A DNA stretch of 64,000 bases from Candidatus Woesebacteria bacterium RIFCSPHIGHO2_01_FULL_39_23 (GCA_001792305.1 MGGH01000023.1:34347-98346), one strand, 5' to 3'; shown: positions 3,377-63,906, counted from the stretch's first letter. The notes: generated by a model not told the origin, from the letters alone. Made by a program: numbers and translations.

Positions 3377-4774
3377 GTGGACGCAGTAATTTTTACAATG
3401 ACAAAATTAGTATCTACAAACCCTGCTAAGAATTATGAAGTGATTGGTGCTGTTGATATTTCCACAAAAAGGGAGATAGAAGTAAAAGTGGCCTCCGCAC
3501 AAAAAGCCAAGTTAAAGTGGAAAGAGCTTGGAATTGTAAAAAGGACACAATTTTTAAGACCGGTTTTCAAAGAATTTATGAGGAGACAGAAAGAACTCGC
3601 ACTTCTTATTACCAGAGAAATGGGGAAGCCTATAAGAGAAAGTTTAGATGATATTGATTGGGATAGAGATTATTTCCAGTGGTTTTTGGACAATGGCGAG
3701 AAATATTTATCAGATGAGATAACTCATGAAGACGAGAAATCAGTTCACAAAACAGTATACGAACCTTTAGGTGTTGCGGCAGTAATTGTTCCTTGGAATT
3801 TTCCTTTTGACATGTTTCTTTGGGGAGTAATTCCAAACTTAATTGCCGGTAATACGGTTGTCTTTAAACACTCTGAAGAATGTCCACTAACAGGGAAATT
3901 GATTGAAGAAGTGATGAACAAAAGCGAGTTACCAAGAGGAGTTTTTTCCGAAGTTTATGGCGACGGAAAGGTGGGTGAGATTTTGGTAAACCAAGACATG
4001 GACCTGATCTGGTTTACGGGGAGTACTAAAGTAGGTAGACACATTTACGAGGTTGCCGGCAAGAAATTTATTAAGGCGATTTTGGAGATGGGCGGTTCAA
4101 ATCCGGCAATAGTTTTTGATGATGTAGACATTGATGGAATAATCGACAAAATTTACTCAAAAAGATTTTTGAACTGCGGCCAAACGTGCGACGCATTAAA
4201 AAGATTGATCGTGCACAAGTCGATTTTTGGTAAGGTAGTGGAGAAGTTGAAAAGGCAAGTTGAGTCAAAGGTGGTTGGCGATCCGGAAGATAGAAATACT
4301 GATATGGGAAGCTTGGTAGCCAAAAGGCAGTTGGAATTACTTGAGTCTCAGGTCAAAGACGCGATCCAAAAAGGAGCAAAAATTGTTACTGGTGGAGGAA
4401 GGCCAAAGAATTTAAAGGGTGCTTACTATCTACCCACTATTCTAACTAAAGTTAAAAGAGACATGAGAGTCTGGAAGGAGGAAACTTTTGGTCCGGTATT
4501 GGTTGTAGTTCCTTTTAAAACAGAGAAAGAAGCTATTAGTTTAGCTAACGACACACTTTATGGCTTGGGTGCACAGATTTATTCAAATAATAAAGCACGA
4601 GCAAGAAGAGTTGCTTCAAAAATTGACGCTGGGACAATCGATATCAATAGTGCGAACCACTGGTTGGCTTGTAATCCATTCGGCGGTTTCAAATATTCGG
4701 GAATGGGTCGTGAGCATGGTGAATATGGTTTTCGTGAACTTACTCAAGTAAAAGTTATCGCGGAGGAAAAATGA
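3377..4774 (+). CDS. NAD(P)-dependent aldehyde dehydrogenase family protein. The track start is GTG; the first ATG is at 3398.
   Basis: ALDH hallmarks are present: VPWNFPF, EMGGSNPAIVFDD, and GQTCDALKRL carrying the catalytic Cys. Confidence 0.85.
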   Translation: MDAVIFTMTKLVSTNPAKNYEVIGAVDISTKREIEVKVASAQKAKLKWKELGIVKRTQFLRPVFKEFMRRQKELALLITREMGKPIRESLDDIDWDRDYFQWFLDNGEKYLSDEITHEDEKSVHKTVYEPLGVAAVIVPWNFPFDMFLWGVIPNLIAGNTVVFKHSEECPLTGKLIEEVMNKSELPRGVFSEVYGDGKVGEILVNQDMDLIWFTGSTKVGRHIYEVAGKKFIKAILEMGGSNPAIVFDDVDIDGIIDKIYSKRFLNCGQTCDALKRLIVHKSIFGKVVEKLKRQVESKVVGDPEDRNTDMGSLVAKRQLELLESQVKDAIQKGAKIVTGGGRPKNLKGAYYLPTILTKVKRDMRVWKEETFGPVLVVVPFKTEKEAISLANDTLYGLGAQIYSNNKARARRVASKIDAGTIDINSANHWLACNPFGGFKYSGMGREHGEYGFRELTQVKVIAEEK

Positions 4775-5361
4775 ATAAGGTAAAGGTCCTGGTTGAAGGG
4801 TATGCGAAGATAAATTCTGATGGGACTTGGGATGCGACTTCGAGCACTACGTTTATTGACACTGGAAAGCTCAAAATTGTCGTTGACCCAGGATGTAGTC
4901 GTGAGCTACTTTTGAAAGCTTTGAAAAATGAAAATTTGAAAACAAGCGATATTGACTGCGTGTTTGTAACGCATTATCACCCTGACCACTGTGCTTTGAT
5001 GGGCATATTTGAAAACGCAACAATTTACGATTCTGTCCAATGGCAAAATGGGCCTCTGGGTGGGGATATTGGTGGGCTTCTGCCCGAAACCGATATTGAA
5101 GTCGTTAAGACACCAGGGCATTCGCCTGAACATGCATCACTTGTTGTCAATACCAATGAGGGAAAATATGTTGTAGCTGCGGATGTTTTCTGGTGGAAGG
5201 CGGGTGAAGAGCAGAAGGTAGATATAGAAAAGCCGGATGATTTTGCATCTGATATATCTGCGCTAAAAGAAAATCGCAGGAAAGTTTTGGAAATAGCTGA
5301 CTTTATAATTCCTGGGCACGGAAAGATGTTTAAAGTAGAAAATGAAGGGTTGGGTGAGTAA
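4771..5361 (+). CDS. MBL-fold metallo-hydrolase
   Basis: HxHxDH motif (VTHYHPDHCA). Its start overlaps the ALDH stop (ATGA). Confidence 0.75.
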   Translation: MNKVKVLVEGYAKINSDGTWDATSSTTFIDTGKLKIVVDPGCSRELLLKALKNENLKTSDIDCVFVTHYHPDHCALMGIFENATIYDSVQWQNGPLGGDIGGLLPETDIEVVKTPGHSPEHASLVVNTNEGKYVVAADVFWWKAGEEQKVDIEKPDDFASDISALKENRRKVLEIADFIIPGHGKMFKVENEGLGE

Positions 5362-5401: not shown

Positions 5402-5899
5402 TTAGGGGCGGGAAGCGATTTTAAGCGCATACTTCGCATAAAACTTCACGTGTTTTTTGAGATTGTACTTTGGATCATCTAAGTCTCTTTCAGTGAACCA
5501 TTTGTGGTTTGTAACAAACTTATCCTTGGAACCTCTAGGGTCAACATCTGTTGTCAAAAAAAATCGATAAGCGACATGCGTATGTTCTTCAGAAACCTGA
5601 TGAATGTCTGTGAAGGTTGGTGTAACTACAGATCTGCTTTTCATGCCTCCCATATCAGAAAAAATATTCTCTTTTGGCAAGCTATTTCTTGGATCTAACA
5701 GTTCTAATTCGCTTTTTTTGATTCCTGTTTCCTCTTCCATTTCTCTGTAAATTGTGGTTTCGGGGTCTTCGTCTTTCTCAATGTGCCCACCAGGCCCAAA
5801 CCACGAATTGTATTTCTTATTAAAAATCAGAAGAACCTTATCATTTTTAATAATGAAACAGTTAATTGTATATTCAAGAACTTTGTTTGTATGAGCCAT
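5402..5899 (-). CDS. NUDIX hydrolase
   Basis: Nudix box GPGGHIEKDEDPETTIYREMEEETGI. Confidence 0.8.
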   Translation of the reverse strand: MAHTNKVLEYTINCFIIKNDKVLLIFNKKYNSWFGPGGHIEKDEDPETTIYREMEEETGIKKSELELLDPRNSLPKENIFSDMGGMKSRSVVTPTFTDIHQVSEEHTHVAYRFFLTTDVDPRGSKDKFVTNHKWFTERDLDDPKYNLKKHVKFYAKYALKIASRP

Positions 5900-5905
5900 G
5901 GATAA

Positions 5906-6160
5906 TTATAATCTAATATTCTTTATATTTGAAACTGCCATCCATGAGGACATTGATCCAAATCCTGATTTGTTAATACTAAATGGTTTTACTTTTTGAG
6001 GATTTTTGAGAAAGACTAGAATGCAGCATTTTTTATCCTTTCGACCACTTTCTATAAGATTCCGGATAAAAAACTTTATTAAGGGCTTTTCAGTTGTATG
6101 TCGAAAATAAACTGGATATTGAGGCCTGTATATTAATTGCTTAAATGGAAAAAGAACATG
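5906..6160 (-). pseudogene. Orphan 3'-terminal fragment paralogous to the ASCH-like gene at 8964..9395, with no start codon
   Basis: The reverse-strand frame is open from the stop at 6163-6161 down to the stop at 5908-5906 without any ATG. It encodes ...KDKKCCILVFLKNPQKVKPFSINKSGFGSMSSWMAVSNIKNIRL*, versus the intact gene's ...KDKKCCILVFLKNPQKVKPFSINKSGFGAMAAWLTVNNINKIKI*. Confidence 0.6.
5964..6040. repeat. Copy 1 of a perfect 77-bp direct repeat (cctgatttgttaatactaaatgg...gcagcattttttatcctt)
   Basis: Identical to 9022..9098 by direct comparison. The flanks show only partial similarity. Confidence 0.9.
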
Positions 6161-6283
6161 TCAAAGATATTTTTTCTTACGATCTAGGATTTGATAAGCT
6201 ATCTGGTATAAACAAGATTGATCCATGATTTTTTTAACAGTTGGCAATTTATTGGTGGCAAATGATGGGCGAATCGGTTCTAA

Positions 6284-7270
6284 TTAATTAGTATTTTTGA
6301 ATAAATCGGGGTTAATTTTCCAATCAGGAGTTGCGTAGTTATCTCCCCAAACCCCTTCACTGTCAACAGAGTTGAAGTAAAAAATAGTCTTTAAAAGTGG
6401 GTATTTTTTACTGCTATTTATTGCGTCAAATAACCAATTTTTCTGGAAATCTTGGTTACCTGTTACACCAAACTCCGCTATTATCACAGATTTATCATAA
6501 TCTTTCACCATGTTGTATCTGTCAGCGAAAATATTATCGAAACTTCTAGCTTTTCCATAATTGTCTATGTCCCACTGGGGATATTCGAAAACTGATAAAC
6601 CAATAAGATCGACGTAATTCCCTCCAGGCCAATAATTGTTGGCGTTAGTATGGCCAACCGGTGACCAAACGAAATAATTTTTCGAATCTATTTGTCTGCA
6701 ACGGTTTACAAAATACCGATATGAAGCGATGTAACTTTCACTATCCTCTTTTGCCCAAGGATACCTTCCTGTCACATTTTCCATTTCGTGACCCCAGCGG
6801 ATAAATACAGGATTTAGTGAGTCTTTGAAATCTAAGCAGACAGCATCAGTAGCTTCATCGTAACTTCCTTTTAGAATATCTTCAAATAAGGTACTAGTTT
6901 GATCAACAGAGCCATCAAAAGTAAACGGCTCCACAGTTACCATAGTCCATCTGTTATTTTTACTTGCCTCATTGAAAAAATTATCTAATTCCCCTTTTTC
7001 GTATTCGTTCCATTTAATAAATTCGTGCACGATTGATATTGTATTGACGGAATCGAAATTGCCGTTCGGGTCATAAACACCGAAATTGATTTTTATGTTT
7101 TTCCAGTCTATGTTGCAGTTCCTTTTTAAAAATTCGAACGGTGAATTACAAAGAATAGATTTATAACCCCAGGTAATACCATTTATTGCGTCGGACCCCC
7201 TAGTAATAATAGCGGATATGGGGAATAAAAAAACTAATAAACTAAAAGTAATAAATAAGTATTTTTTCAT
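6284..7270 (-). CDS. Secreted clan GH-A glycoside hydrolase, GH26-like (beta-mannanase/endo-glycanase type)
   Basis: Signal peptide (MKKYLFITFSLLVFLFPISAI). IRWGHEMEN matches the GH26 acid/base region (R..HEMN), and IIAEFGV is a nucleophile-Glu strand. Overlaps the upstream GT2 gene by 4 nt. Confidence 0.55.
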   Translation of the reverse strand: MKKYLFITFSLLVFLFPISAIITRGSDAINGITWGYKSILCNSPFEFLKRNCNIDWKNIKINFGVYDPNGNFDSVNTISIVHEFIKWNEYEKGELDNFFNEASKNNRWTMVTVEPFTFDGSVDQTSTLFEDILKGSYDEATDAVCLDFKDSLNPVFIRWGHEMENVTGRYPWAKEDSESYIASYRYFVNRCRQIDSKNYFVWSPVGHTNANNYWPGGNYVDLIGLSVFEYPQWDIDNYGKARSFDNIFADRYNMVKDYDKSVIIAEFGVTGNQDFQKNWLFDAINSSKKYPLLKTIFYFNSVDSEGVWGDNYATPDWKINPDLFKNTN

Positions 7271-8853
7271 AATCTGGATTTACGACTAAAAGATTTATTT
7301 TCATTAAAGTGATTTTTTATGATCATAAAGATAGAAATTGTGTAAGTAATAATATTTAATATTACAAAGTACAAATATCCAGAAACCATAGGAGAACCTT
7401 TTGCATATAAGGAAATATATGACAAAAAGATAATAACCAGGTAAGGTGTTAACATGCCTATTTTTAAAGGGCGATTACCAATTTCACCCTTTGAAGTTAC
7501 TTTAAAAGAAACGTCTTTTCTTGAAATACATACAATAATTCCAGAAAGAACACCAAGTAGCACCCAAGGCCATCTAATTAGTTGAAAAACAAACGTTTCC
7601 CACGAGATAAATTTTGAATTGGATGGTCTAAGCCATCCCCTATTTTTGATCCAAATTATTATGCTAAGTGTAATAATGGAAAGGATCCATGTGTAAAAAC
7701 TGAAAGCGATGTAGGTCACATTGACCCATGGCTTGTTTGTAACCAAAGCAATTATAGGTAGGCTGTACGCAAAAACTATTGTTGTAGAAAACAGAGGATA
7801 CCATAATTCAGAGAACAGAAATTGCAGTTTAAAGCGCGAAGGTAGATTTTTAAGGTATTTAGGAGTTACTGTCAGCAATATTATAATTAGACTCCTGGTC
7901 CATTGGAATTCTTGAAACATACTATCTGTAAAACTTTCTGCTCCGTCACCGTGGGCAATTGCATCTGTTGCGTGGATTCCACGCCACTTGTTCGCGTTCA
8001 TCATAAGTGTTGTTGTATGGTCTTCAGCCAATTCAGGCCCCAAACCTCCAATTTCTTTTAAAGCTTTTGTGCGCACGGCGTAGTGCGACCCGATGCAAAG
8101 AGGTGCCCAGCCGGCATTATACCCAGACTGTAGGGGTCCGTGCAGGGTGGCTTCAGCATATAGCCTTGCCCTTGCTGCCCAGCTTTTCTTTGCATTTGCG
8201 TCGCAAATGCTTGGAGCAGATACATATCCTACTGCCGGGTCTGCAAACGGTCTTAGCATCTCTTCTAAATAACCGGCTTCCGGTACGTGGTCGGCATCCA
8301 TTTGGATTACGAATTCGTAGCGGTAATAGCCGTAATTATCGTAAAAGTAGGCAAGATTGCCTTCTTTGCATTTTGTTTTTCTTGGCCACTTTGGGCGATG
8401 ATATTCTACAGCCCCCTTTCTGGTTGAAACAAAAACTCCATTTCGCTTGCACCACTGGTAGACTTCTTCTGTCGGGTCTTCGTCTGCAAGCCAGGTATCG
8501 TGTGCGTATTTCTGGGAAAGCATAGCTGAAAGCGTCTTTTTGACAACTTCAAAAGGTTCGGATGGGGCTTTTGTAACAACCATGGCTACCAATAGCCCTT
8601 TGGGTATAGGTAGTTTGGGATTGGGTTTTTTCATTTTGGCCACAAAGAAGAAAAAATATGCAGGCATCATCATATTCCAGGCAATCAAGGTGCTGTTTAA
8701 CACAAATCCCAGTCTTCCTACAACATGGCTTTCGTCCAGCCACCATATCCAAAAAACAGCTGCGAAGATAAGCCACAGTGCAAATAAAACGTTAAAGAAT
8801 ACCTTTTGTCTTTGTGTCATTATATCGACCAGATATGGGATACTAATATTCAT
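7267..8853 (-). CDS. Processive family-2 glycosyltransferase, cellulose-synthase-like (BcsA/Csl-type), integral membrane
   Basis: N-terminal TM helices, then LADEDP (D,D), KEGNLAYF (KAG-like), QMDADH (DxD), GPELAEDH (TED-like), QEFQWTRS (Q..RW-like), and about 6 C-terminal TM helices. Confidence 0.6.
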   Translation of the reverse strand: MNISIPYLVDIMTQRQKVFFNVLFALWLIFAAVFWIWWLDESHVVGRLGFVLNSTLIAWNMMMPAYFFFFVAKMKKPNPKLPIPKGLLVAMVVTKAPSEPFEVVKKTLSAMLSQKYAHDTWLADEDPTEEVYQWCKRNGVFVSTRKGAVEYHRPKWPRKTKCKEGNLAYFYDNYGYYRYEFVIQMDADHVPEAGYLEEMLRPFADPAVGYVSAPSICDANAKKSWAARARLYAEATLHGPLQSGYNAGWAPLCIGSHYAVRTKALKEIGGLGPELAEDHTTTLMMNANKWRGIHATDAIAHGDGAESFTDSMFQEFQWTRSLIIILLTVTPKYLKNLPSRFKLQFLFSELWYPLFSTTIVFAYSLPIIALVTNKPWVNVTYIAFSFYTWILSIITLSIIIWIKNRGWLRPSNSKFISWETFVFQLIRWPWVLLGVLSGIIVCISRKDVSFKVTSKGEIGNRPLKIGMLTPYLVIIFLSYISLYAKGSPMVSGYLYFVILNIITYTISIFMIIKNHFNENKSFSRKSRL

Positions 8854-8963
8854 AGAGAAGCAAGAATTATAGAGTATTTAGGGAAACTAAGTCAATCGTG
8901 ATAAGTTGATGCTTATCGATTATACGGTGCTACGTTTAGAATATATTTAAGACTATGTTTGGA

Positions 8964-9395
8964 TCATATCTTAATTTTGTTGATGTTGTTGACTGTAAGC
9001 CACGCAGCCATTGCGCCGAAGCCTGATTTGTTAATACTAAATGGTTTTACTTTTTGAGGATTTTTGAGAAAGACTAGAATGCAGCATTTTTTATCCTTAA
9101 ATAATTTGTAGTAATAATCAATCTTATTTTTCTCAATTCCGTCTGGTCTGTGGAATTTGTTTAATAATTCTTCTACTCTTCGCGGATTTAATTTATCAAA
9201 TTGTAAAACTTTGGATACCTTCGCTTTTACAACAATAAGTTCCCCGGAGTTTTTGAAATAAACAGTGTCACTTGCCTTTACTTTGTCCCAAGGAGCAGAC
9301 TTGTTCTTAAGCCAGCGAGACTCGATATTTTTTGTACCATTGAGGATTTTGGGAATGAGGCCCCAAGATTTTTTCATTATTGCCAGATGATCCAT
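8964..9395 (-). CDS. ASCH/PUA-like domain protein
   Basis: 143 aa. MKKSWGLIPKILNGTKNIESRW...DTVYF...GELIVVKAKV resembles ASCH-domain proteins. The last ~45 codons contain repeat copy 2. Confidence 0.4.
   Translation of the reverse strand: MDHLAIMKKSWGLIPKILNGTKNIESRWLKNKSAPWDKVKASDTVYFKNSGELIVVKAKVSKVLQFDKLNPRRVEELLNKFHRPDGIEKNKIDYYYKLFKDKKCCILVFLKNPQKVKPFSINKSGFGAMAAWLTVNNINKIKI
9022..9098. repeat. Copy 2 of the perfect 77-bp direct repeat
   Basis: Identical to 5964..6040. Lies inside the 3' end of the ASCH-like CDS. Confidence 0.9.
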
Positions 9396-19505: not shown

Positions 19506-21351
19506 TTATTCAAAATTGTACTCTGTTATTCTTTTTTTAATGTAGCCGTTATCAGTTTCGATTAACTCCTCCGGAATATCAGTCAAAAACCGGCTGGGGG
19601 GATTTGAGGACGTTTGGCCGAAATAAAGACGGCGGGAGGCGTAAGTTAGATAAAGAATTTCTTTTGCGCGAGTGATACCTACATATGCGAGCCGCCTTTC
19701 TTCTTCCATCCCGTCTTGTTCCCATAAAGATTGTGCATGTGGGAAAAGTCCCTCTTCCATACCGATAATAAATACAACTTTAAATTCCAGTCCTTTTGAA
19801 GCATGTAATGTCATTAGGGTAACAGCATCTTTATTTTTTTCGCCATTTAATGGATCATCTGGCAGATATTCTTGTTGAACAAGTGCGACGTTTTCCAAAA
19901 AGTCGTGGATTTTGGGAAACTCGCTAGCAACGGACCTGAGCTCTTTGATGTTTTCAAGGCGCGCATAGTCTTCGGTTGATTCAGGATTAAATTTTTCTAA
20001 ATATCTTGTGATACTCACCACTTCGTCCATCAGCTCAAGGGTGGTTTTGGCGTTTAAAGGTTTAATTTTTACAGAGTATTTTTTAAACTCATCAAATCTT
20101 CTTTTACCGATTTTTTCTACCCGCTTGGTTGAAACATGATCTTTGGGGTTAACAAGCAGTCGTAAATAGGAAAGTACGTCCTTTATTTCGGCCCGCTCGT
20201 AAAATTTCACACCACCAACCAGTACGTAAGGAATTCCTGCGTGCAAAAAAGCTTCTTCCAAAACTCGTGATTGGGCATTAGTCCTGTATAAAATTGCTAT
20301 GTCTTTATAGCTTAAATTATTTTTTAAAATTTCATTGATTATATATGTCGCTTCTTCCGACCCGCTTCTGGCAGAATAGATTTTTATTTTTGGTCCGCCC
20401 TTTTTCTTTGTCCAAAGTTTCAAGACCGGGTGAGTTGTATTTTTTGAAATAACACTGTTTGCCGCAAGCAGAATGACTTCTGAAGACCTGTAATTTTCCT
20501 CAAGATTGACAATTTTGATACCTGGAAAGTCATTAATTAAATTTGCAATGTTTCGGAAATCTGCGCCTCTCCATGAATATATTGATTGGCTTGCATCGCC
20601 TACGGCAGTTATATTCTTGTTTTTTGATACAAGCAATTTGGTGAGCAAGTATTGTATTTTGTTTGTATCCTGCCATTCATCCACTAAAACATAAGTGAGC
20701 CTATTTTCCCATTTATTTAAAGTAGGCGGATCATTTTTTAGAAGATCGACTGTGTGCAGTAGAAGGTCATTAAAATCCAGTGCGTCGGCTTTTTTGAGAG
20801 CTTTTTCGTATTCAAGATAAATTTTGAAAGTTTTTTCCTGCATTGGTGTTTTTGCGATCTCCGCATACATAAGGGGGGTCAACATTTGGTTCTTCGCCGA
20901 ATCTATGGAGGAAAGAACCGATCCGGGACTCACGGATTTATCCGAAATATTTAAGACTTTTATAATGTCTTTTATTAAGTCCTTTTGATCTTGTGTGTCA
21001 TATATGATGAAGTTTCTGTTTATTCCTATTTTTTCCCCGTCTATGCGAAGCAGCCGTGCGCAAAAAGAGTGGAAAGTTCCCGTAAAAAATGGAAAGGTGC
21101 CGGTAATTTTTTCTACTCTTTCTTTCATTTCCCCCGCAGCTTTGTTAGTGAAAGTTAGAAGTAACAAGTTTTCTGGTCTTGCCCATTTTTGCGAAAGCAC
21201 ATATGCGGCTCTTTGTGTTAGTACCCTTGTCTTGCCGCTTCCAGCACCAGCGAGGACCAGTAGTGGTCCACTGCCGTAACTTACAGCTTCTTGTTGTGCA
21301 GTATTGAGTTGATCTAAAATAGATTTCGTTATACGTTTTTGATTGTAACAT
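19506..21351 (-). CDS. UvrD/PcrA/Rep-family SF1 helicase. The N-terminal ~50 codons, including Walker A, are reachable only through a 1-nt frameshift in a T5/A5 run at 21336-21340.
   Basis: The track ORF 19506..21200 starts at LLLLTFTNKAAGEM, which is helicase motif Ia. The same frame continues upstream through GPLLVLAGAGSGKTRVLTQRAAYV to a stop at 21360-21362 with no start codon. An ATG at 21351-21349 lies in the +1 frame (MLQSK...). Deleting one A joins them as MLQSKRITKSILDQLNTAQQEAVSYGSGPLLVLAGAGSGKT. Confidence 0.7.
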
Positions 21352-22405
21352 GGCGAGATCTAAATTTTTCTTTACAAAATTCAAGCGAAAATTTTTGAGC
21401 CACTTGTGGTTGGCAAGGATTATAATTATTTTGGGGGTGTTGTGTGTGGTGTTCCTGGGTGTTGTCGGGATTGCCTCGGTTGTTAAGAAGACCCCGCTTT
21501 CAGACTATATCGATATTGTGACTGCTTTTGTGTTTTCACCAAAAGACAAAGTGAAAAATTTTGACGGTAGGACAAATATTTTGATTCTTGGCAAGGGTGG
21601 TGAAGGCCACGAGGCACCAGATCTTACCGACACCTTAGTTTTAGCCTCAGTCGATTTTGATAAAAATGCAGTTTCGTTTCTATCTATTCCTAGAGACATT
21701 TGGATAGAGTCTTTGAGGATTAAGTTGAATAGTGCTTATTATTGGGGAAACGAAAGACAAGAAAATGGAGGACTGATTCTTGCTAAATCATCTGTCGAGG
21801 AAATCATTGGTTCACCAGTGCACTACGCCGTGGTTATTGACTTTGTTTTATTTAAGGATTTGATTGACGAGGTGGGTGGAATAGAAGTGGACGTGGAGGA
21901 TTCGTTTGTGGATCATCGATATCCCATTCCTGGGCGGGAAAATGATGAGTGTGACGATGATCCTAAGTTTTTGTGTAGATATGAAACAATCGAGTTTAGG
22001 AAAGGCTTGCAATTTATGGATGGTGATACTGCTCTAAAATTTGTCCGTTCAAGAAATGCCGAAGGGGACGAGGGGACGGATATTGCAAGATCCAAGAGGC
22101 AGCAGAAGGTGATTTTGTCTTTAAAAAACGAAATTCTAAGCTGGAACATTATTTTCTCATTCAATAAGTTGTCGAACATAAAAGAATTGGTGGGATCAAG
22201 GACGGAAACAGATATGGATACAATTGCGTCGGTAATTGTTGCAAGGAAGATTTTTGACGCGAGAAATAACTTTAGGACTTTAAGCATTCCCGAAGAATTC
22301 TTGGAGGTAGCGCCAAAGTCTCCCGACTTCGACAATCTTTACGTATTCATACCGAGTGCTGGTAATTGGATGGAACTTCAAAGGTGGATAAAAAGCAATA
22401 TCTGA
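21350..22405 (+). CDS. LytR-CpsA-Psr (LCP) family cell-envelope polymer transferase
   Basis: N-terminal TM helix, then DTLVLASVD...SIPRD, the LCP signature. Confidence 0.75.
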   Translation: MARSKFFFTKFKRKFLSHLWLARIIIILGVLCVVFLGVVGIASVVKKTPLSDYIDIVTAFVFSPKDKVKNFDGRTNILILGKGGEGHEAPDLTDTLVLASVDFDKNAVSFLSIPRDIWIESLRIKLNSAYYWGNERQENGGLILAKSSVEEIIGSPVHYAVVIDFVLFKDLIDEVGGIEVDVEDSFVDHRYPIPGRENDECDDDPKFLCRYETIEFRKGLQFMDGDTALKFVRSRNAEGDEGTDIARSKRQQKVILSLKNEILSWNIIFSFNKLSNIKELVGSRTETDMDTIASVIVARKIFDARNNFRTLSIPEEFLEVAPKSPDFDNLYVFIPSAGNWMELQRWIKSNI

Positions 22406-23880
22406 TTTTAGCAGTAGTTTGTTTACTTTACCTTATTTTCCGATTAGGGTGGCAAGATACTATTGAGTTTGGATATGACCAGCCGCTGTTGGCTTCTAAG
22501 GTTATTGAATTTTTTAAAAACCCTAACTGGATTGAAAGTTATGAATTTGTTGGGACAAATCCCTGGGGGTTTCCATCTTGGGGGCCGATGCAACTCTTTT
22601 TCTGGGTCCCTTTTATTTTGATGTCCCGAGACCCAATAATTCTTTCCTTGTCGGCTGCGGTTTTTAATATGTTAAGTATTATCCTTATTTTCATAATCGG
22701 GAAAAGATATTTTTCTTTGAAAGTTGCTGTTTTTTCCTCACTTTTTCTGGCTATTCACCCTTGGTGGGTGGTTTTCTCGAGAATGATTTATGAACCTACG
22801 CCCGTGCCCACTATTATTGCTTTTTCAATACTCTTAAGTTTTTATGTTTTTGAGAAAAAGAAAACTTCAGTGGTTGTGTTGCTTATTATTTCATGGGCAG
22901 CTCTTATACAAATATATATTCATACGTTTTCTTTTGTGGTGACAAGTGTTTTGTTTTTACTCGCCAGCATAAAGAAAACTTCCAAAAAGTACATGGTCCT
23001 TGGATTTTTATTATCACTCCTCCTTTTTCTGCCTGTTTTTCATTACTACGTCAAATATCCTGATCGTAGTCTTGATCTATTAAAGGTTTTGGAAGAATTT
23101 AACAAGGGGGATTTGGAGTCAGGGCATTCCACTCGAGACGTTTTACCCGAATTTTTAAAGACAATTTCAGGAGATGGATTCGAATGGCAACTTGGCTATG
23201 CATATCCCGAGTTTCAGAAAGAATTGAAAATTGCTGCCCCTGCTATTTTAGCCACAATTACAACATTGGCCGTATTAATCTATGGTTTTATCAGCGTTTT
23301 CGAAAAAGGTTACGGAAAACATAAAACAATACTTCTTTTATTGTGGACTCTGGCTCCGGTCTGGTTTCTCTTTTTGATAAATACGCCCATTGCACTTCCG
23401 CGCTACTTTTTAATGAGTTTGCCACCTTTATCAATTCTTTTTGGCTTAGCAGTCGAGAAGTTTTATACCAAAGTAAAATATTTTACTTTGATTGCCGCTC
23501 TTTTTGTGTTATTTTGGTGGCTGGTGTTTAATGCTATTTATTTATCGTTTATAGGGAATTACAAATACCCGAGCGGCTTTTTGAGTCATTATTCGGATGT
23601 CCCTTATCTGTTTTTAAAAGATGCGGTATTGTGGATTATTGAGGATTCAGCAAAGAAAGGATACATTGAGTTTACCATTAGTAACGATATTAATAAACCC
23701 TACGAGTTCAGCCTAAATGCAGCAACAGAATATGTTTTGAAGTATGTTTACGAAATAGAATTTAGAGATGCTGGAAGTATGAATATTGGACATTATTTGT
23801 TGATTTATTCGAACGAATCTATTGACGTAACTGTTCTAAAACAATTTGGTCCTTATATAGTAGCTTACCCAAAAATATAG
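22366..23880 (+). CDS. GT-C fold membrane glycosyltransferase (ArnT/PMT_2-like)
   Basis: 504 aa, polytopic, with the general ArnT/PMT_2 architecture. Confidence 0.45.
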   Translation: MDGTSKVDKKQYLILAVVCLLYLIFRLGWQDTIEFGYDQPLLASKVIEFFKNPNWIESYEFVGTNPWGFPSWGPMQLFFWVPFILMSRDPIILSLSAAVFNMLSIILIFIIGKRYFSLKVAVFSSLFLAIHPWWVVFSRMIYEPTPVPTIIAFSILLSFYVFEKKKTSVVVLLIISWAALIQIYIHTFSFVVTSVLFLLASIKKTSKKYMVLGFLLSLLLFLPVFHYYVKYPDRSLDLLKVLEEFNKGDLESGHSTRDVLPEFLKTISGDGFEWQLGYAYPEFQKELKIAAPAILATITTLAVLIYGFISVFEKGYGKHKTILLLLWTLAPVWFLFLINTPIALPRYFLMSLPPLSILFGLAVEKFYTKVKYFTLIAALFVLFWWLVFNAIYLSFIGNYKYPSGFLSHYSDVPYLFLKDAVLWIIEDSAKKGYIEFTISNDINKPYEFSLNAATEYVLKYVYEIEFRDAGSMNIGHYLLIYSNESIDVTVLKQFGPYIVAYPKI

Positions 23881-23881
23881 T

Positions 23882-24943
23882 TTAGAAAGCCCATCTTCCA
23901 AGGTAGAAAGCGTTGGTATAAAAAATTAGAAGGATAGAGGACAATAATACCCAAACGACTTTAAATAGCTTATATTTCAAAAGTAACTGGAGAATTATAA
24001 GGAAGGGAAACATAGATAAAATATATCTCGGGGCACTTAGTATAAATCCCGTGGAGGTAAAAAGCAGAGTACTCAAAAACATAAAAATAAAATAAGCAAA
24101 GTTAATATTGGATCTTTTAAATAGTGTTAATAGACTAAAAATCCAAGCTAAGAAAGACGAAAGACCCTCGAAAAGACCTGCTGTGACCCTTTGATAGGTA
24201 TCCCAGTCGAAGTGGGTCATTAGTTTAAAGCTTTTAGTAATTCCTTCCCAGGGCAATGCAAAAGACTTTTGCCAGTAGTTTTTAAGAAAAAGTGAGAAGG
24301 AAAAAGGATCCTGGTTCAATTTGAAATTTAAGTATAAATAATAAATCGGGAAAATTAATCCCGGCAAGACATAAATCAATTTACTAATATTTTTTGTCTT
24401 AAGAAGGAGATAAAGAATTGCCGGAAAGATAAATATTCCCGTTGGTCTTGTAATCGATGCCAAGCCTGCAAATAAAAAACCCAACAAAAAATTACTTTTT
24501 CTGGCAAAATAAAAAGAAACCGCTGTCAAAAACAAAAAAAGTGATTCCGGATACCCGGCTGAAAAAAAGTATGAGGTGGGAAAAAGCGAAATTAAGATTA
24601 CAACTTCTTTTGAAAACTTCTCTTCGTAATCAATTTTAAGTAACTTATATAAAATTAGACTACCTAGGATAAAGAAAATGTTTGATACAAAAAAGGCGAT
24701 GGTCTCCGTTTGCAGTCCCAAAAAACTAAAAAATCTCAAAATAGTTGGAAACAAAGGTAGAAAAACTATAAACTCGCTACCGACGAGGTTTTGTGGGACA
24801 TAACCGTTTTCGGCTATAAATCTATAGCTATTTCCGTCCCATCTCTCACCCAGAGTCGATATTACAAACTCACCATTTATGAAAAATAGCGAGACAAAGA
24901 GCACAAGCCTTGTTGATATTAAAAATATTAATAACTTACCCAT
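23882..24943 (-). CDS. GT-C membrane mannosyltransferase-like protein (PIG-V/GT87-like)
   Basis: GERWDGNSYRFIAENGY matches the WD..Y..IA..GY motif of PIG-V-type GT-C enzymes. Polytopic. Confidence 0.45.
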   Translation of the reverse strand: MGKLLIFLISTRLVLFVSLFFINGEFVISTLGERWDGNSYRFIAENGYVPQNLVGSEFIVFLPLFPTILRFFSFLGLQTETIAFFVSNIFFILGSLILYKLLKIDYEEKFSKEVVILISLFPTSYFFSAGYPESLFLFLTAVSFYFARKSNFLLGFLFAGLASITRPTGIFIFPAILYLLLKTKNISKLIYVLPGLIFPIYYLYLNFKLNQDPFSFSLFLKNYWQKSFALPWEGITKSFKLMTHFDWDTYQRVTAGLFEGLSSFLAWIFSLLTLFKRSNINFAYFIFMFLSTLLFTSTGFILSAPRYILSMFPFLIILQLLLKYKLFKVVWVLLSSILLIFYTNAFYLGRWAF

Positions 24944-26082
24944 CCGAATTTATTTATCCAAAGAACTCCCCAAAAGTTAACTCCAACCGAAATGAAAAGT
25001 AGTAGCCAATGGTGCCACTTAAGGTCAGTCTTTGTAACATTTTTAATTATTAGAAAGATTAGGAAAGGGTAAAAGTCTACCGCAAAACGGTAGCCGAATT
25101 GAGCAAAGCCTGTGGTGCCGTGCATAAAAACAACAGATGCTATTGCCAAAATTGTCAGCCAGAAAGGCACGGCCCATTTTTGTCTAATAGTTTTTATTGA
25201 ATAAATGAAAGCGGGTGTGGTGATCCAGATGGCCATACCTGACCAGGACGGTTGAATGTAGGGGAAAGTGTTTTTAATAACAGGGAGTCCTTTAAATATA
25301 ACTTCCAAATGCCTGCCAATGTATGAGGGGTGAAATAAACCGTTTTGGTACCATGGTTCCTCGAAAATTTCAGGGATAAGTAGATATCCTTTATCCCAAA
25401 TGACTCCAAACCGGGCATAGTTATACAAAGAATTAAACATTAGAAACGGCAGAAAGCCAACTACAATCTGAAAAACATCTTTAAGAAAGGAACTCTTTCT
25501 GTCCTTTGCGATAAGATAAATAAATAAAGGCAGTGCGAGGACTGTGTGGATTCTTGATAGATACGAGGCACCAAGAAATGTTCCAATTATTAGCCCTCTT
25601 TTTTTACCCGCTACCTCAAGGAGTGCAAACAACATGAAAAACATCGCGGATATTTGTCCCAGATACCACGACGATCCAACTGATGAAAGAAACCAAACAA
25701 CACTTCCAAGCCCAACTAAAGTACCTGACCAAAAGGCAACTTTGTAGTTGCTTTTGATTCTCAATGCAAGCTTGACTGTTAATAAGACTATACCTGCACC
25801 CATCAGGTGGGCTAGAATTTGCTGAGGAAAATCCTTTCCAAAAATGGCGACAAAGGGAAGAGAAGCTATAGCTGGCATTGGCGGATAAACGATGTAAAAT
25901 TTGTTTGAGCCGCCTGGAACCAATTCGGACAGCCAGGGTGGATTTTCGGCTATCCAAAACTGTCCATTTAGAAAAGCAGCTGAAAGTCTCGTAAAATAGT
26001 TATAGGGAGTGTTACCTACTGGTCCGAACAATTTATAAATGACAAAAGTAAGTATAAAAATCGGCAAGAAAAGTTTTTTCAT
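24928..26082 (-). CDS. GT-C fold membrane glycosyltransferase (ArnT-like)
   Basis: 384 aa, polytopic. Its start overlaps the start of the divergent gene at 26039 by 44 nt. Confidence 0.4.
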   Translation of the reverse strand: MKKLFLPIFILTFVIYKLFGPVGNTPYNYFTRLSAAFLNGQFWIAENPPWLSELVPGGSNKFYIVYPPMPAIASLPFVAIFGKDFPQQILAHLMGAGIVLLTVKLALRIKSNYKVAFWSGTLVGLGSVVWFLSSVGSSWYLGQISAMFFMLFALLEVAGKKRGLIIGTFLGASYLSRIHTVLALPLFIYLIAKDRKSSFLKDVFQIVVGFLPFLMFNSLYNYARFGVIWDKGYLLIPEIFEEPWYQNGLFHPSYIGRHLEVIFKGLPVIKNTFPYIQPSWSGMAIWITTPAFIYSIKTIRQKWAVPFWLTILAIASVVFMHGTTGFAQFGYRFAVDFYPFLIFLIIKNVTKTDLKWHHWLLLFISVGVNFWGVLWINKFGWVSY

Positions 26083-28537
26083 TAGTAATATTTTACTATT
26101 AATTTTTGCTGCGTTTATAATCCGGATTTTATTATCACCATTTGGTACCTTGGATCTTGACCAAAATACATTTATTGCCTGGAGTAATATTTTAACCGAA
26201 GGTGGTTTTAAAAGCTTTTATAATAGCTGGTCGGATTATCTTCCAGGATACCTTTATGTTTTGTGGTTTTTGGCTAAAATTGGAAATCTCCTGCCCATTC
26301 CAACGGAAGTGCTGTTTAAACTTCCCGCGCTTATTTCCGATCTTGCCACAGGCTACTTAATTTACCATATTGTAATGAGATTAAAAGGTGAAAAGCTAGG
26401 GTTTGTTGCCGCGTCAATTTTTTTGTTTAACCCTGCAGTATTGTCTAATTCTAGCCTCTGGGGTCAGATAGATAGTCTTACCTCTTTATTTTCTCTTCTT
26501 TCGATTTTATTTTTTGGAAAAAATATTTACCTTTCGGCTTTTTTCTTGTCGTTTGGGTTTATGGTTAAACCCCAAGCTGCATTAGCAGCACCTGTTATTT
26601 TGTTTTTAATGGCTAAAAATAGGTTTGCTGCGAAAAATTTTTTTCTTTTTTCAGCTTTAGTTTTAATATTTTTGACTCTGGGATTTTTGCCCTTTTTCTC
26701 GGGCGGGAACTTAGCTGAATTTATTATTCAAAGGGTAAAGATGACTTTGGGTCAATATCCGTATAGTTCGATTAATGCTTTCAACTTTTGGGGTTTGCGT
26801 GGTTTTTGGAAAAGCGAAGGTGAGGGGATATTCACAACAGGTTTTTGGGGCTTGCTTTTTTCGGGTTTTGTCGGTTTGGTCTCCATTTTCAAGCTTGTGC
26901 GATCTAAAAAACCAGGAGGAGAGTACTACTTAGCTGCGATACTTTTTATATCTAATTTTTTGTTTTTCAGCCGAATGCACGAGAGGCATCTTATGCCCTC
27001 ATTTGCCTATCTTGCTATTGTCTCCGTTCTTGACTGGAGAATTGTTTTTTCATACATCGCTCTTTCTTTTACCTATATTATGAATACAATATATTCTTAT
27101 ACATGGATAGTCGAAGACTTTAAGGAAATTTTTACAGGTGATTTAGTAAAAGTTTTTATTATTGGAAACCTGCTGGTTTTTGGTAACCTGATTCTGCAAG
27201 GTTTTAAGAAAAAAAGCGATCAATTTCCAAGTTTTAATATATCTACTCCCTTCCGGAAAAAACCAGTTGATATTAAATTTGGCGATATAGCCAAAAATAC
27301 GGCTTCAAAGCTGGTGCTTCTTATTCTTTTGTTTTCCGCCATAACAAGAATATTTTATCTTCACCAACCGCAAAAAGAGTATTTTGATGAAGTCTATCAC
27401 GCCTTTACGGCGAGGCAGATGCTCTCTGGTAATACTTTTGCCTGGGAGTGGTGGAATCCTCATCCCGAAGGCTTTGCTTACGAGTGGACACATCCGCCTA
27501 TGGCAAAGCTAATTATGGCAGCCGGGATGTACATTTTTGGCGTGAATCAGCTTGGTTGGAGATTGCCTGGAGCGATCTTTGGTGTGCTTGCAACACTTCT
27601 AATTTTTTTGATCTCAAAGTCAATTTTTAGAAACAGGAGTATTGCAGTACTTAGTGCATTCATTTTTTCACTGGAGGGCCTACCTCTGGTCATGAGCAGA
27701 ATAGGGATGAATGATATTTACTTTCTTACTTTTATGTTGCTCTCAATTTACCTTTTCATTAAGACCAAAAATTTTGCGTCAAGTATTTCTTTGGGGCTCG
27801 CTGCCGCCTCAAAATGGAGCACACTGTGGGCTTTACCTATTTTTCTAATCATACACTTTGCCTTGAAGAAAAAAATTAGGCTGTCTTACTTGTGGTTTTT
27901 GGTGATGCCGGTTTTGGTTTATCTGTTATCTTATTCGCCAATATTTTTAAGTCCAAAAATTCAGAGAGAATATGTTGAAAACACTGGTTACCAAAGAAAC
28001 ATTGACGAAAAGATCGGAATTATTCCTTTGGATATGTTTATTGATACACAGAAGCAAATGTGGTGGTATCACACTAATTTAAAAGCAACTCATCCTTTCA
28101 CTTCTCCATGGTGGAGCTGGCCGTTTTTAAGCCGTCCAGTGTGGGTTTATACTGGAAGCGAAGAGGGTGGTGTAGTAAGTAATATTTATATAATGGGTGA
28201 TCCTCTTGTGTTTTGGTTTGGTATTGTTTCTATTATCGCATGTGGATATTACGCTTTGAGTGAAAGAAATAAAAAGCTCGGGCTAATTGTTTTTTCGTAC
28301 GTTATCTTTTTTGCTCCCTGGGCAGCATCCCCTAGAATTATGTTTTTGTACCATTATCTTCCATCTGTACCGTTTATGGTAATTGCCATAAGCTATGTAC
28401 TTAAAAGAAATTCAAAGTATTTAGTCCCTGTTTTAATAGTATTTGTTTTAAGTTTTATCTATTTTTACCCGCGTTTCTCCGGTATCCCAGTACCACCCCA
28501 ACTAAATGAATCATACAGATGGTTTGATGGTTGGTAA
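26039..28537 (+). CDS. Two-module GT-C protein: an N-terminal GT-C (DUF2029-like) domain fused to a C-terminal PMT/GT39-like protein O-mannosyltransferase domain
   Basis: The C-terminal half has YFDEVYHAFTARQ...WTHPPMAKLIMAAGM, the PMT/GT39 DE..H / HPP.AK signature. The N-terminal half is a separate 10+ TM GT-C-like module. Confidence 0.55.
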   Translation: MTKVSIKIGKKSFFISNILLLIFAAFIIRILLSPFGTLDLDQNTFIAWSNILTEGGFKSFYNSWSDYLPGYLYVLWFLAKIGNLLPIPTEVLFKLPALISDLATGYLIYHIVMRLKGEKLGFVAASIFLFNPAVLSNSSLWGQIDSLTSLFSLLSILFFGKNIYLSAFFLSFGFMVKPQAALAAPVILFLMAKNRFAAKNFFLFSALVLIFLTLGFLPFFSGGNLAEFIIQRVKMTLGQYPYSSINAFNFWGLRGFWKSEGEGIFTTGFWGLLFSGFVGLVSIFKLVRSKKPGGEYYLAAILFISNFLFFSRMHERHLMPSFAYLAIVSVLDWRIVFSYIALSFTYIMNTIYSYTWIVEDFKEIFTGDLVKVFIIGNLLVFGNLILQGFKKKSDQFPSFNISTPFRKKPVDIKFGDIAKNTASKLVLLILLFSAITRIFYLHQPQKEYFDEVYHAFTARQMLSGNTFAWEWWNPHPEGFAYEWTHPPMAKLIMAAGMYIFGVNQLGWRLPGAIFGVLATLLIFLISKSIFRNRSIAVLSAFIFSLEGLPLVMSRIGMNDIYFLTFMLLSIYLFIKTKNFASSISLGLAAASKWSTLWALPIFLIIHFALKKKIRLSYLWFLVMPVLVYLLSYSPIFLSPKIQREYVENTGYQRNIDEKIGIIPLDMFIDTQKQMWWYHTNLKATHPFTSPWWSWPFLSRPVWVYTGSEEGGVVSNIYIMGDPLVFWFGIVSIIACGYYALSERNKKLGLIVFSYVIFFAPWAASPRIMFLYHYLPSVPFMVIAISYVLKRNSKYLVPVLIVFVLSFIYFYPRFSGIPVPPQLNESYRWFDGW

Positions 28538-63216: not shown

Positions 63217-63906
63217 ATGCGTAAAACACTCTCGAGGATTACATCTTTCGTAATGGGTATTGTAGGGATTTTTATTCTAACTTCCACGCTATTTCCTATT
63301 CTTTCTTATGAATTTTCCTCGTTGGATTCTTTTTCCAACTACCTGTCACCAGTGCCAGAAAAGGACCTAACCGTAATTGAAAAAAGTGGCGATGACCTGA
63401 CTCTTGCTAGTAACTGGTTTGAAGGAGGAGCTAAAAAGGAAGATTTTACTAAGTTGGGCAACATTGACTATTATACATTGTCAATTCCCAAGTTTAAAAT
63501 CGAAAATGCCAAGGTATCGGTTGGAGGAGAGGACTTATCGGAGAATCTCATTCAATACCCAGGCACCGCCTTGCCTGGGAGAATGGGTAATACCGTCATT
63601 TTTGGCCATTCTATCTTACCGCAATTTTTCAACCCTAAAAACTATTTGTCGATCTTTTCTCGCTTGCCAGAGTTAAAAAAGAATGACGAGATAGAGATTT
63701 ATTATGACGGAATATCATATCTTTACAGGGTTGTTGACTTGGTTGAGGTTTACCCAGATGACATTGAAGTACTGGAGCAGCGATGGGGAGATTCTTATTT
63801 AAGCCTTGTTACTTGTGTCCCGCCTGGAGATCCCAGAAAGCCAAGAAGGTTAGTGGTTCGGGCAAAAATTGTCCCACCAGGCGAGGAAACTTTAAGCAAA
63901 ATTTAA
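63217..63906 (+). CDS. Sortase (class E-like transpeptidase)
   Basis: N-terminal TM helix, catalytic His in VIFGHS, catalytic Cys in LSLVTCVPPG (TLxTC-type), and a downstream Arg. Confidence 0.75.
   Translation: MRKTLSRITSFVMGIVGIFILTSTLFPILSYEFSSLDSFSNYLSPVPEKDLTVIEKSGDDLTLASNWFEGGAKKEDFTKLGNIDYYTLSIPKFKIENAKVSVGGEDLSENLIQYPGTALPGRMGNTVIFGHSILPQFFNPKNYLSIFSRLPELKKNDEIEIYYDGISYLYRVVDLVEVYPDDIEVLEQRWGDSYLSLVTCVPPGDPRKPRRLVVRAKIVPPGEETLSKI

Follow-up and report, generated by a model that had tools for sequence, protein, structure and literature searches.

A glycan gene module flanked by a partial ASCH gene duplication is present in some strains and absent from others in an aquifer population of Candidatus Woesebacteria

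We analyzed a 64,000-nucleotide (nt) stretch of DNA from Candidatus Woesebacteria bacterium RIFCSPHIGHO2_01_FULL_39_23 (GCA_001792305.1 MGGH01000023.1:34347-98346), hereafter called the window, in which a perfect 77-bp direct repeat brackets two predicted glycan genes. The organism represents an aquifer population of Candidatus Woesebacteria, which belong to the candidate phyla radiation (CPR). Coordinates are positions in the window, and the genes of the locus lie on its minus strand (Table 1). Read in the direction of the genes, an intact gene for a 143-amino-acid (aa) ASCH-family protein is followed by genes for a processive glycan synthase (GT2) and a GH26-like hydrolase, by an orphan 3' fragment of an ASCH gene, and by a NUDIX hydrolase gene. 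Accessions of the ASCH protein include EKD57479.1, OGM22712.1, and OGM63406.1. The 2981 nt between the two repeat copies, or cores, consist of a 58-nt gene tail, a 110-nt spacer (spacer I), the GT2 gene, the GH26-like gene, which overlaps GT2 by 4 nt, and a 243-nt spacer (spacer X).

The two cores are identical at 77 of 77 positions. Core copy 2 is located within the last 45 codons of the intact ASCH gene, which ends in a tail termed v2, FGAMAAWLTVNNINKIKI*. Copy 1 encodes the same 26 residues, KDKKCCILVFLKNPQKVKPFSINKSG, and then continues in frame into a different 18-residue tail, v1 (FGSMSSWMAVSNIKNIRL*), whose stop codon (5906-5908) lies 6 nt ahead of the NUDIX ATG (5899-5897). On the orphan side, homology to every ASCH gene starts exactly at the start of core copy 1. 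Upstream of this point the frame is open to position 6160, without a methionine codon and without homology to ASCH. This open frame is not conserved: In the related strain represented by contig L006, one nucleotide is missing at the core's edge. The idea of a functional gene extending across spacer X and the orphan was rejected, since a start codon is lacking and L006 has a broken frame. Recomputation confirmed the description given in the initial annotation, namely the 77/77 repeat in the last 45 codons, the shared peptide with its diverged in-frame tail, the orphan 3' fragment behind an open, start-less and ASCH-unrelated frame, and two overlapping, co-oriented genes with no integrase between the cores.

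Table 1. Features of the ASCH-glycan module-NUDIX locus (positions in the window)
Feature	Position	Strand	Remarks
ASCH gene 5' part, 99 codons	9099..9395	-	Open reading frame 8964-9395; common to filled and empty alleles; identical in L011-L013
Core copy 2	9022..9098	-	77-nt perfect repeat inside the intact ASCH gene; single-nucleotide difference in L006 and L010
Tail v2 of the intact gene, FGAMAAWLTVNNINKIKI*	8964..9021	-	Close to the family consensus
Spacer I, between ASCH and GT2	8854..8963	-	110 nt; sigma-70-like match 8895->8866
GT2 processive glycan synthase, 528 aa	7267..8853	-	Pfam
GH26-like hydrolase, 328 aa, hydrophobic N terminus	6284..7270	-	PF02156
Spacer X, 243 nt, 32% GC	6041..6283	-	93.4% identical in L006
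Core copy 1	5964..6040	-	77-nt perfect repeat; opens the orphan ASCH 3' fragment
Orphan tail v1, FGSMSSWMAVSNIKNIRL*	5906..5963	-	Identical in L011-L013 and L111; functional tail in the empty allele
NUDIX hydrolase gene	5402..5899	-	PF00293; 6 nt downstream of the orphan stop; operon partner of ASCH in relatives and in the empty allele
Recombination breakpoint	5100..5300	.	Inside the metallo-beta-lactamase-fold gene 4771-5361; identity drop to L111 and L006

The perfect repeat is part of a longer one. A repeat finder aligned 5905-6040 with 8963-9098 without gaps, giving a repeat of 136 nt with 23 mismatches (83% identity), and all 23 mismatches fall in the distal 59 nt (P=2e-10 under uniform placement). 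The sharp edge between the identical and the diverged parts appears to mark a conversion or crossover boundary. No further copy of the core, nor of any 20-mer of it, is present in the 64-kb window.

The initial annotation predicted that an empty site would consist of the ASCH gene, one core, and the adjacent NUDIX gene. Exactly this arrangement is present in four metagenome contigs (L011, L012, L013, and L111). Three of these are short contigs from three different samples (L011, L012, L013), and they encode a 143-aa protein (P0001) that is 93% identical to the ASCH protein and is composed of the ASCH 5' part, the core, and the v1 tail; the NUDIX gene begins after 6 nt. The fourth contig, L111, was found through a search with the core itself. 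On both sides of the junction the empty-site contigs are 99.9-100% identical to the window, with a 13-nt tail overlap discounted, and two of them (L011 and L013) end at window positions 5332-5334. The tail in the empty allele is the orphan tail v1, which is how an attB site would look. The locus is therefore the site of a 3058-bp presence/absence polymorphism whose ends are marked by the repeat, and the ASCH gene is intact in both states. ASCH and NUDIX genes are also adjacent in more distant relatives (L014, L022).

The exact ASCH protein is recorded in 43 blocks of the assembly collection, and the whole filled structure was recovered in nine contigs that derive from different samples and assemblers (MEGAHIT with k=141 for most, and Joint Genome Institute [JGI] assemblies). 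Both exact cores, 3058 nt apart, occur in seven of these nine contigs. In one filled contig (L010), the GT2 gene is frameshifted by a 1-nt indel, which leaves open reading frames (ORFs) of 233 and 244 aa (L010 3329-4916, corresponding to window 7267-8853). This finding suggests that the cassette is dispensable. The split gene also gives the impression that the cassette is decaying in some cells.

The evidence for both alleles consists of assembled contigs, which raises the question of whether the repeat or the empty allele arose when the assembler took a wrong path through a graph node common to two strains. The length of the repeat, 77, equals the default SPAdes k value, and the empty-site contigs are short (1.1-3.4 kb). 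However, the same 3058-nt spacing is seen in MEGAHIT k=141 assemblies of several samples and in separate JGI assemblies. A 141-mer spans the 77-nt repeat, so both the filled and the empty junctions require real reads. Moreover, L006 and another filled contig, L105, share the architecture with different repeat sequences. An assembly artefact, including the k=77 coincidence, was therefore rejected and is almost certainly not the cause of the pattern; with nine contigs in agreement, the artefact that had been named as a way to refute the annotation was not borne out.

If the cores were att sites, a fixed position of strand exchange would be anticipated, yet the strains differ in this respect. Contig L105 carries the filled allele and is 99.6% identical to the window. 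At 9021, 9018, 9015, and 9014 its ASCH gene copy reads as the orphan does before returning to v2, such that the gene copy and the orphan are 100% identical over 90 nt and the switch to v2 occurs 13-15 nt further 3'. The four clustered changes match the orphan's bases exactly, which indicates a gene-conversion tract. In L006, which is 96.5% identical to the window overall, the orphan core carries nine substitutions, lacks 1 nt, and is 87% identical to the orphan core of the window; identity between the two L006 cores is likewise only ∼87% (about 10 of 77 positions differ), and the orphan tail is a third allele (e.g., AGT versus TCC for the same serine). The differences in the L006 orphan core and tail argue that the perfect 77-bp repeat is a feature of one lineage rather than a conserved site. 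Overall, the tract of identity is 77 nt in the window and 90 nt in L105, and L006 is unconverted or mosaic.

Similarity among strains changes abruptly along the locus. Compared to the window, L006 is 98.5-100% identical from the helicase gene that flanks the locus through GT2, 94% in GH26, 93% in spacer X, 86-87% in the orphan, 99.6% in NUDIX, and 90% in the neighboring metallo-beta-lactamase-fold gene (LactB). Between the core and ∼5200, a stretch that includes NUDIX, L111 matches the window at 100%; beyond it, the identity is only ∼75% through an aldehyde dehydrogenase gene. Where the two contigs overlap, L006 shares this divergent right-hand allele of L111. Strain mosaics of this type appear to be the signature of frequent homologous recombination among strains. 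The process that makes such mosaics is the same one that is needed for conversion of the repeat, for loss of the cassette by crossing-over, and for its regain through the flanks.

The observations are probably best explained by general homologous recombination acting on a partial gene duplication, which gives rise to a presence/absence polymorphism of a surface-glycan module, with ASCH remaining functional in either state. The 77 bp that are identical at present belong to a partial duplication, 136 nt long, of the ASCH gene 3' end. Its two copies flank a 3-kb module consisting of GT2, the GH26-like hydrolase gene, and an apparent promoter of their own. Gene conversion would keep or make identical the proximal part of both copies. 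Crossing-over between the copies would delete the 3058-bp segment, yield an ASCH gene that is chimeric yet intact (5' part, core, and v1), and re-fuse this gene into an operon with NUDIX. The module could return by recombination through the homologous flanks. The filled allele comprises ASCH with tail v2, the cassette with its promoter-like site, and the NUDIX gene preceded by the orphan, which holds a promoter-like match as well. RecA-type recombination would presumably be the enzyme system involved, and empty alleles would mostly be deletion derivatives.

The history of the module in related genomes is consistent with this explanation. Relatives carry the GT2-GH26 pair in the same neighborhood, between a UvrD/PD-(D/E)XK helicase gene and the metallo-beta-lactamase-fold gene. 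In Woesebacteria 42_20 (L022) and in L021 the order is helicase, GT2, GH26, ASCH, NUDIX; in Woesebacteria 38_9 (L016-L020) it is ASCH, adh_short, a NUDIX 3' remnant, GT2, GH26, LactB. GT2 is 73%, 73%, and 60% identical to its counterparts in L022, L021, and 38_9, respectively, and the flanking helicase is 85%, 75%, and 70% identical to those of the same relatives. GH26 is 65-66% identical and is adjacent to GT2 in L016, L021, and L022. The divergence of GT2 and GH26 thus resembles that of the flanks, suggesting that the cassette diverged in step with its surroundings.

Composition does not set the cassette apart either. Its GC content at third codon positions (GC3) is 34-37% versus 35-39% in the flanks, and overall GC is likewise equal. 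A foreign composition of the cassette was rejected on these grounds, though GC reaches ∼0.49 locally in the middle of GT2. Among 5.8 billion proteins, no GT2 homologs between 73% and 100% identity were found elsewhere, and therefore nothing points to a recent spread into other genomes. As judged from these comparisons, the GT2-GH26 module appears to be a long-term resident of this neighborhood and not a mobile element.

The same neighborhood in Woesebacteria RIFCSPHIGHO2_02_FULL_38_9 (L016 6754-11125) shows other rearrangements. A 35-codon NUDIX 3' remnant (7851-7955) lies directly upstream of GT2, and an adh_short gene on the opposite strand occupies the place of the remainder of NUDIX. PIN/MazE and YafQ/RelB modules and a DDE_3 transposase gene are located nearby. 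The neighborhood is a hot spot of rearrangement within the clade.

We searched for machinery that might mobilize the cassette. No integrase, resolvase, or transposase was found with Pfam in the cassette, in the locus genes of the first ∼19 kb, or in the 36 large ORFs at 16-64 kb; a handful of ORFs in the window have no Pfam match at all. The recombinase search proposed in the initial annotation accordingly gave nothing in the cassette or in the scanned genes of the window. The window itself is core chromosome that carries genes for DnaK/DnaJ/GrpE, NusA, IF-2, PNPase, FtsK, AlaRS, and MurJ. A tRNA-linked island was rejected because the window has no tRNA or tmRNA gene. The exact 117-mer that would represent a circle, attP, or tandem junction (v2-core-X) is absent from JGI metagenome contigs, which are a weak test for such molecules, and the core is absent from viral contigs in IMG/VR. 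At 88 other ASCH loci from genomes and metagenomes there is no 3' orphan, and, close relatives excepted, no GT2 or GH26 gene near the ASCH gene.

These data bear on a competing explanation, in which the cassette is an integrative element without an integrase, resembling a cis-mobilizable element (CIME) or the remnant of a decayed island, and the 77-bp cores are attL and attR. Its recombinase would be encoded elsewhere or lost, its attB would lie in the 3' end of the ASCH gene, and it would carry a replacement 3' end. Direct repeats that reconstitute the ASCH 3' end and an exact empty site are in keeping with this model, as is the observation that the same X/core joint is found in filled strains as diverged as L006. 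Precedents exist in e14 at icd/icdC (PMC13626634) and in CIMEs (PMC5704250), and at a second ASCH locus (L072, described below) a duplicate of the ASCH 5' end brackets a toxin gene. However, site-specific integration is not supported because no recombinase was found in the element or the scanned genes of the window, the position of the junction varies, the cassette genes look vertically inherited with host-like composition, near-identical copies are missing from the 5.8 billion proteins, no circle junction was detected in JGI metagenome contigs and no core in viral contigs, and 3' orphans do not recur at the 88 other ASCH loci. We therefore consider an integrative element improbable. From the att-like reading offered in the initial annotation, the repeat as the boundary of an indel that preserves ASCH and the exact empty site are retained, whereas site-specific integration, attL/attR sites, and a mobile cassette are not.

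The second locus just mentioned is found on a contig from a metagenome-assembled genome (MAG) labeled Saccharibacteria (L072 4213-5335, CAYIJU010000014.1). There, the 5' end of the ASCH gene is present twice, in a 102-nt direct repeat with 96% identity (4213-4314 and 4900-5001) that brackets a gene for a 133-aa PemK/MazF-type toxin (4358-4759), in a mirror image of the arrangement in the window. In a relative whose ASCH is 88% identical (L106-L109), there is no PemK gene at this place. It is conceivable, though we doubt it strongly, that the ends of ASCH genes are recurrent landing pads in CPR for integrase-less cassettes that carry a replacement gene end and thereby leave the target intact. 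Capture at such pads may be due to a dedicated trans-acting recombinase or to short-homology, Campbell-type integration of circularized DNA. If this is true, then the glycan cassette at the 3' end in the window and the PemK toxin gene at the 5' end in L072 would be two cases of one general mechanism by which these reduced genomes gain genes.

In a further scenario, the block [ASCH-NUDIX-GT2-GH26] was duplicated in tandem long ago and then underwent differential loss, so that the orphan is the remnant of a second ASCH copy and the gene orders of the relatives are alternative losses. The 77-bp identity would then be due to later conversion, and the empty allele to later deletion. This scenario accommodates the three permuted orders (GT2-GH26-ASCH-NUDIX, ASCH-'NUDIX-GT2-GH26, and ASCH-GT2-GH26-'ASCH-NUDIX) and the NUDIX 3' remnant directly upstream of GT2 in 38_9, and gene conversion is demonstrated at the locus. 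Yet remnants of the lost genes are missing where they would be anticipated: blastn (word size 7) and tblastx detected no ASCH 5' remnant in spacer X and no NUDIX remnant in spacer I. A nonfunctional 136-nt fragment is also unlikely to outlast the divergence of the lineages, whose helicases are 70-75% identical in aa sequence.

The two tails likewise weigh against an old tandem duplication. The NUDIX-adjacent ASCH gene of L022, the nearest relative, has a tail that resembles v2 (14 of 18 positions match) and not v1 (8 of 18). Differences between v1 and v2 number 7, 3, and 13 at first, second, and third codon positions, respectively, and this bias to third positions suggests that both tails evolved in functional genes, until recently. 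Given these findings, descent from an old tandem duplication appears quite unlikely.

Returning to homologous recombination on a partial duplication, the duplication itself would most simply have arisen once, presumably through one joint, illegitimate or of the Campbell type, that brought together two related lineages, with ASCH(v2)-GT2-GH26 in the first and ASCH(v1)-NUDIX in the second. Two versions of this event may be imagined. In the first, a Campbell-type single crossover in the core may have brought the cassette with its v2 tail into an ASCH-NUDIX genome. In the second, a fragment 'ASCH-NUDIX-LactB (6040 to ∼5200) may have entered an ASCH-GT2-GH26-LactB genome, an order that is seen in 38_9. 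Such a fragment may have been anchored by LactB homology and joined illegitimately at X/core, which fits the ∼5200 breakpoint without being proven by it. Among the top 120 homologs, there is no donor carrying the exact v2 tail, which is consensus-like.

Several points weigh against the explanation that we favor. The topology is exactly that left by site-specific integration into the 3' end of a gene by an insert carrying a replacement tail, and a trans-acting integrase may be encoded elsewhere in the genome. No homolog of spacer X exists anywhere, and among family members tail v1 stands out as atypical. The contigs with the empty site are short and stop near the ∼5200 breakpoint, and L111 is tied to a very divergent right flank. 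The at least 99.9% identity of the flanks would argue that the empty allele is a recent deletion, but this polarity argument is weakened by the ∼75% right flank of L111.

Annotations of the encoded proteins rest on Pfam and on homologs. GT2 matches PF13506 (50 bits), PF13632 (43 bits), and PF13641, with PF03552 just under the cut-off, and the GH26-like protein matches PF02156 with 27.3 bits versus a cut-off of 20.2. Among the GT2 homologs are single polypeptides in which GT2 and GH26 (PF02156) are fused (P0176, 880 aa; P0216, 879 aa), suggesting that the two proteins act as one unit. The 143-aa window protein itself has no Pfam match at E<=0.01. However, 27 of 40 close homologs (59-93% identity) match PF04266 (ASCH), with a best E value of 4.8e-6, and JGI annotates several homologs as "ASC-1-like (ASCH) protein".

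Promoter-like sites were found at two places. Spacer I contains a strong sigma-70-like match on the minus strand just upstream of GT2 (TTGACT-18-TATAAT, 11/12), and orphan tail v1 contains a promoter-like match on the same strand (5933->5905, 10/12) just upstream of NUDIX. Both are consensus matches only, and the total count of such sites does not exceed that in shuffled sequences. It may be that a NUDIX promoter constrains the unusual sequence of tail v1. A promoter/terminator scan found no terminator-like site in spacer X, which also has no detectable homology to the intergenic DNA of relatives. Approximately 45 nt directly before the GT2 start are weakly similar to L021 and L022.

Other observations were made during the analysis. 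Across many CPR phyla as well as MAGs assigned to DPANN archaea (Woesearchaeota, Nanoarchaeota; loci L022-L101), identity in the small ASCH-family protein is 55-68%. Based on this level of similarity, the protein appears to be either unusually conserved or exchanged between both groups of ultra-small organisms. Labels of Gammaproteobacteria, Methanosarcinales, and Spirochaetia on MAGs among these loci look like binning errors. Upstream of ASCH in L106 (1973-3266; also L107-L109), a myo-inositol-1-phosphate synthase gene is apparently interrupted by a LAGLIDADG-type ORF, which is a candidate intein or homing endonuclease. The first 33 nt of L110 (1-33) are an inverted copy of sequence ∼40 nt further in, probably an assembly artefact of the contig end.

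Within the window, a glycosylation cluster at 21350-28537 encodes LytR_cpsA_psr, two PMT_2-type (dolichyl-phosphate-mannose-type) glycosyltransferases, and a PIG-V-like mannosyltransferase, and the region is rich in surface-glycan functions beyond the variable GT2-GH26 module. A 723-aa protein encoded at 61042-63213 has a weak Baseplate_J-like match (E 1.5e-5); its gene adjoins a sortase gene (63217-63906) in core chromosomal surroundings.

The locus offers a natural case, in an uncultivated CPR bacterium, in which a short partial duplication makes a surface-glycan module both gainable and losable while the neighboring gene stays undamaged. A single aquifer population displays both alleles as well as gene-conversion intermediates, and it recombines actively. 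The polymorphism bears on cell-surface variation of ultra-small episymbiotic bacteria, and hence on host attachment and phage exposure. The results also call for caution, since an att-like repeat and an exact empty site alone do not demonstrate a mobile element.

Repeat-flanked cassette polymorphisms that leave a chimeric gene are already known as a kind, and the locus reveals no new mechanism. Homology-facilitated illegitimate recombination and Campbell-type single crossovers occur in natural transformation (Acinetobacter, Streptococcus). Events of this type are a plausible candidate origin for the duplication, as they would combine a homologous joint (in ASCH or the beta-lactamase-fold gene) with the abrupt nonhomologous X/core joint and so duplicate part of a gene.

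CIMEs are remnants left by decayed integrative and conjugative elements (ICEs) or integrative and mobilizable elements (IMEs), with attL and attR retained, for example at the fda 3' end in Streptococcus (PMC5704250). They resemble the present locus in being segments without an integrase that lie at a protein-coding gene's 3' end and are bounded by direct repeats. However, CIMEs derive from identifiable ICEs or IMEs, and the cognate integrase is found in related elements. At the present locus neither an element of this sort nor an integrase is evident, and the cargo has the look of vertical inheritance.

Prophage e14 was reportedly described by Hill and colleagues in 1989 as integrated in the 3' end of icd, and phage 21 is said to behave likewise. 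The prophage lies between icd and the pseudogene icdC (PMC13626634). The likeness is one of topology only: The insert brings an alternative 3' end that keeps its target intact, the displaced end becomes an orphan at the far junction, and loss of the insert gives a chimeric gene. Prophage e14 differs in that it is foreign DNA with its own integrase and excisionase and a defined excision site, whereas the present locus has no recombinase that could be found, a resident two-gene module, and a varying exchange point.

A closer resemblance in the process itself is seen in lines of the Escherichia coli long-term evolution experiment, where homologous recombination between manB and cpsG deletes the rfb O-antigen cluster and the crossover positions differ by lineage (PMC13626634). 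In both systems, direct homologous gene segments flank a glycan cluster, and deletion leaves one intact chimeric gene. In E. coli, the repeats are two full paralogous genes, the deletion spans 23 kb, and the events were seen in the laboratory (PMC13626634). In the Woesebacteria locus, by contrast, one of the repeats consists of an orphan 3' fragment of 136 nt, 3.06 kb are deleted, and the two alleles coexist in a natural CPR population.

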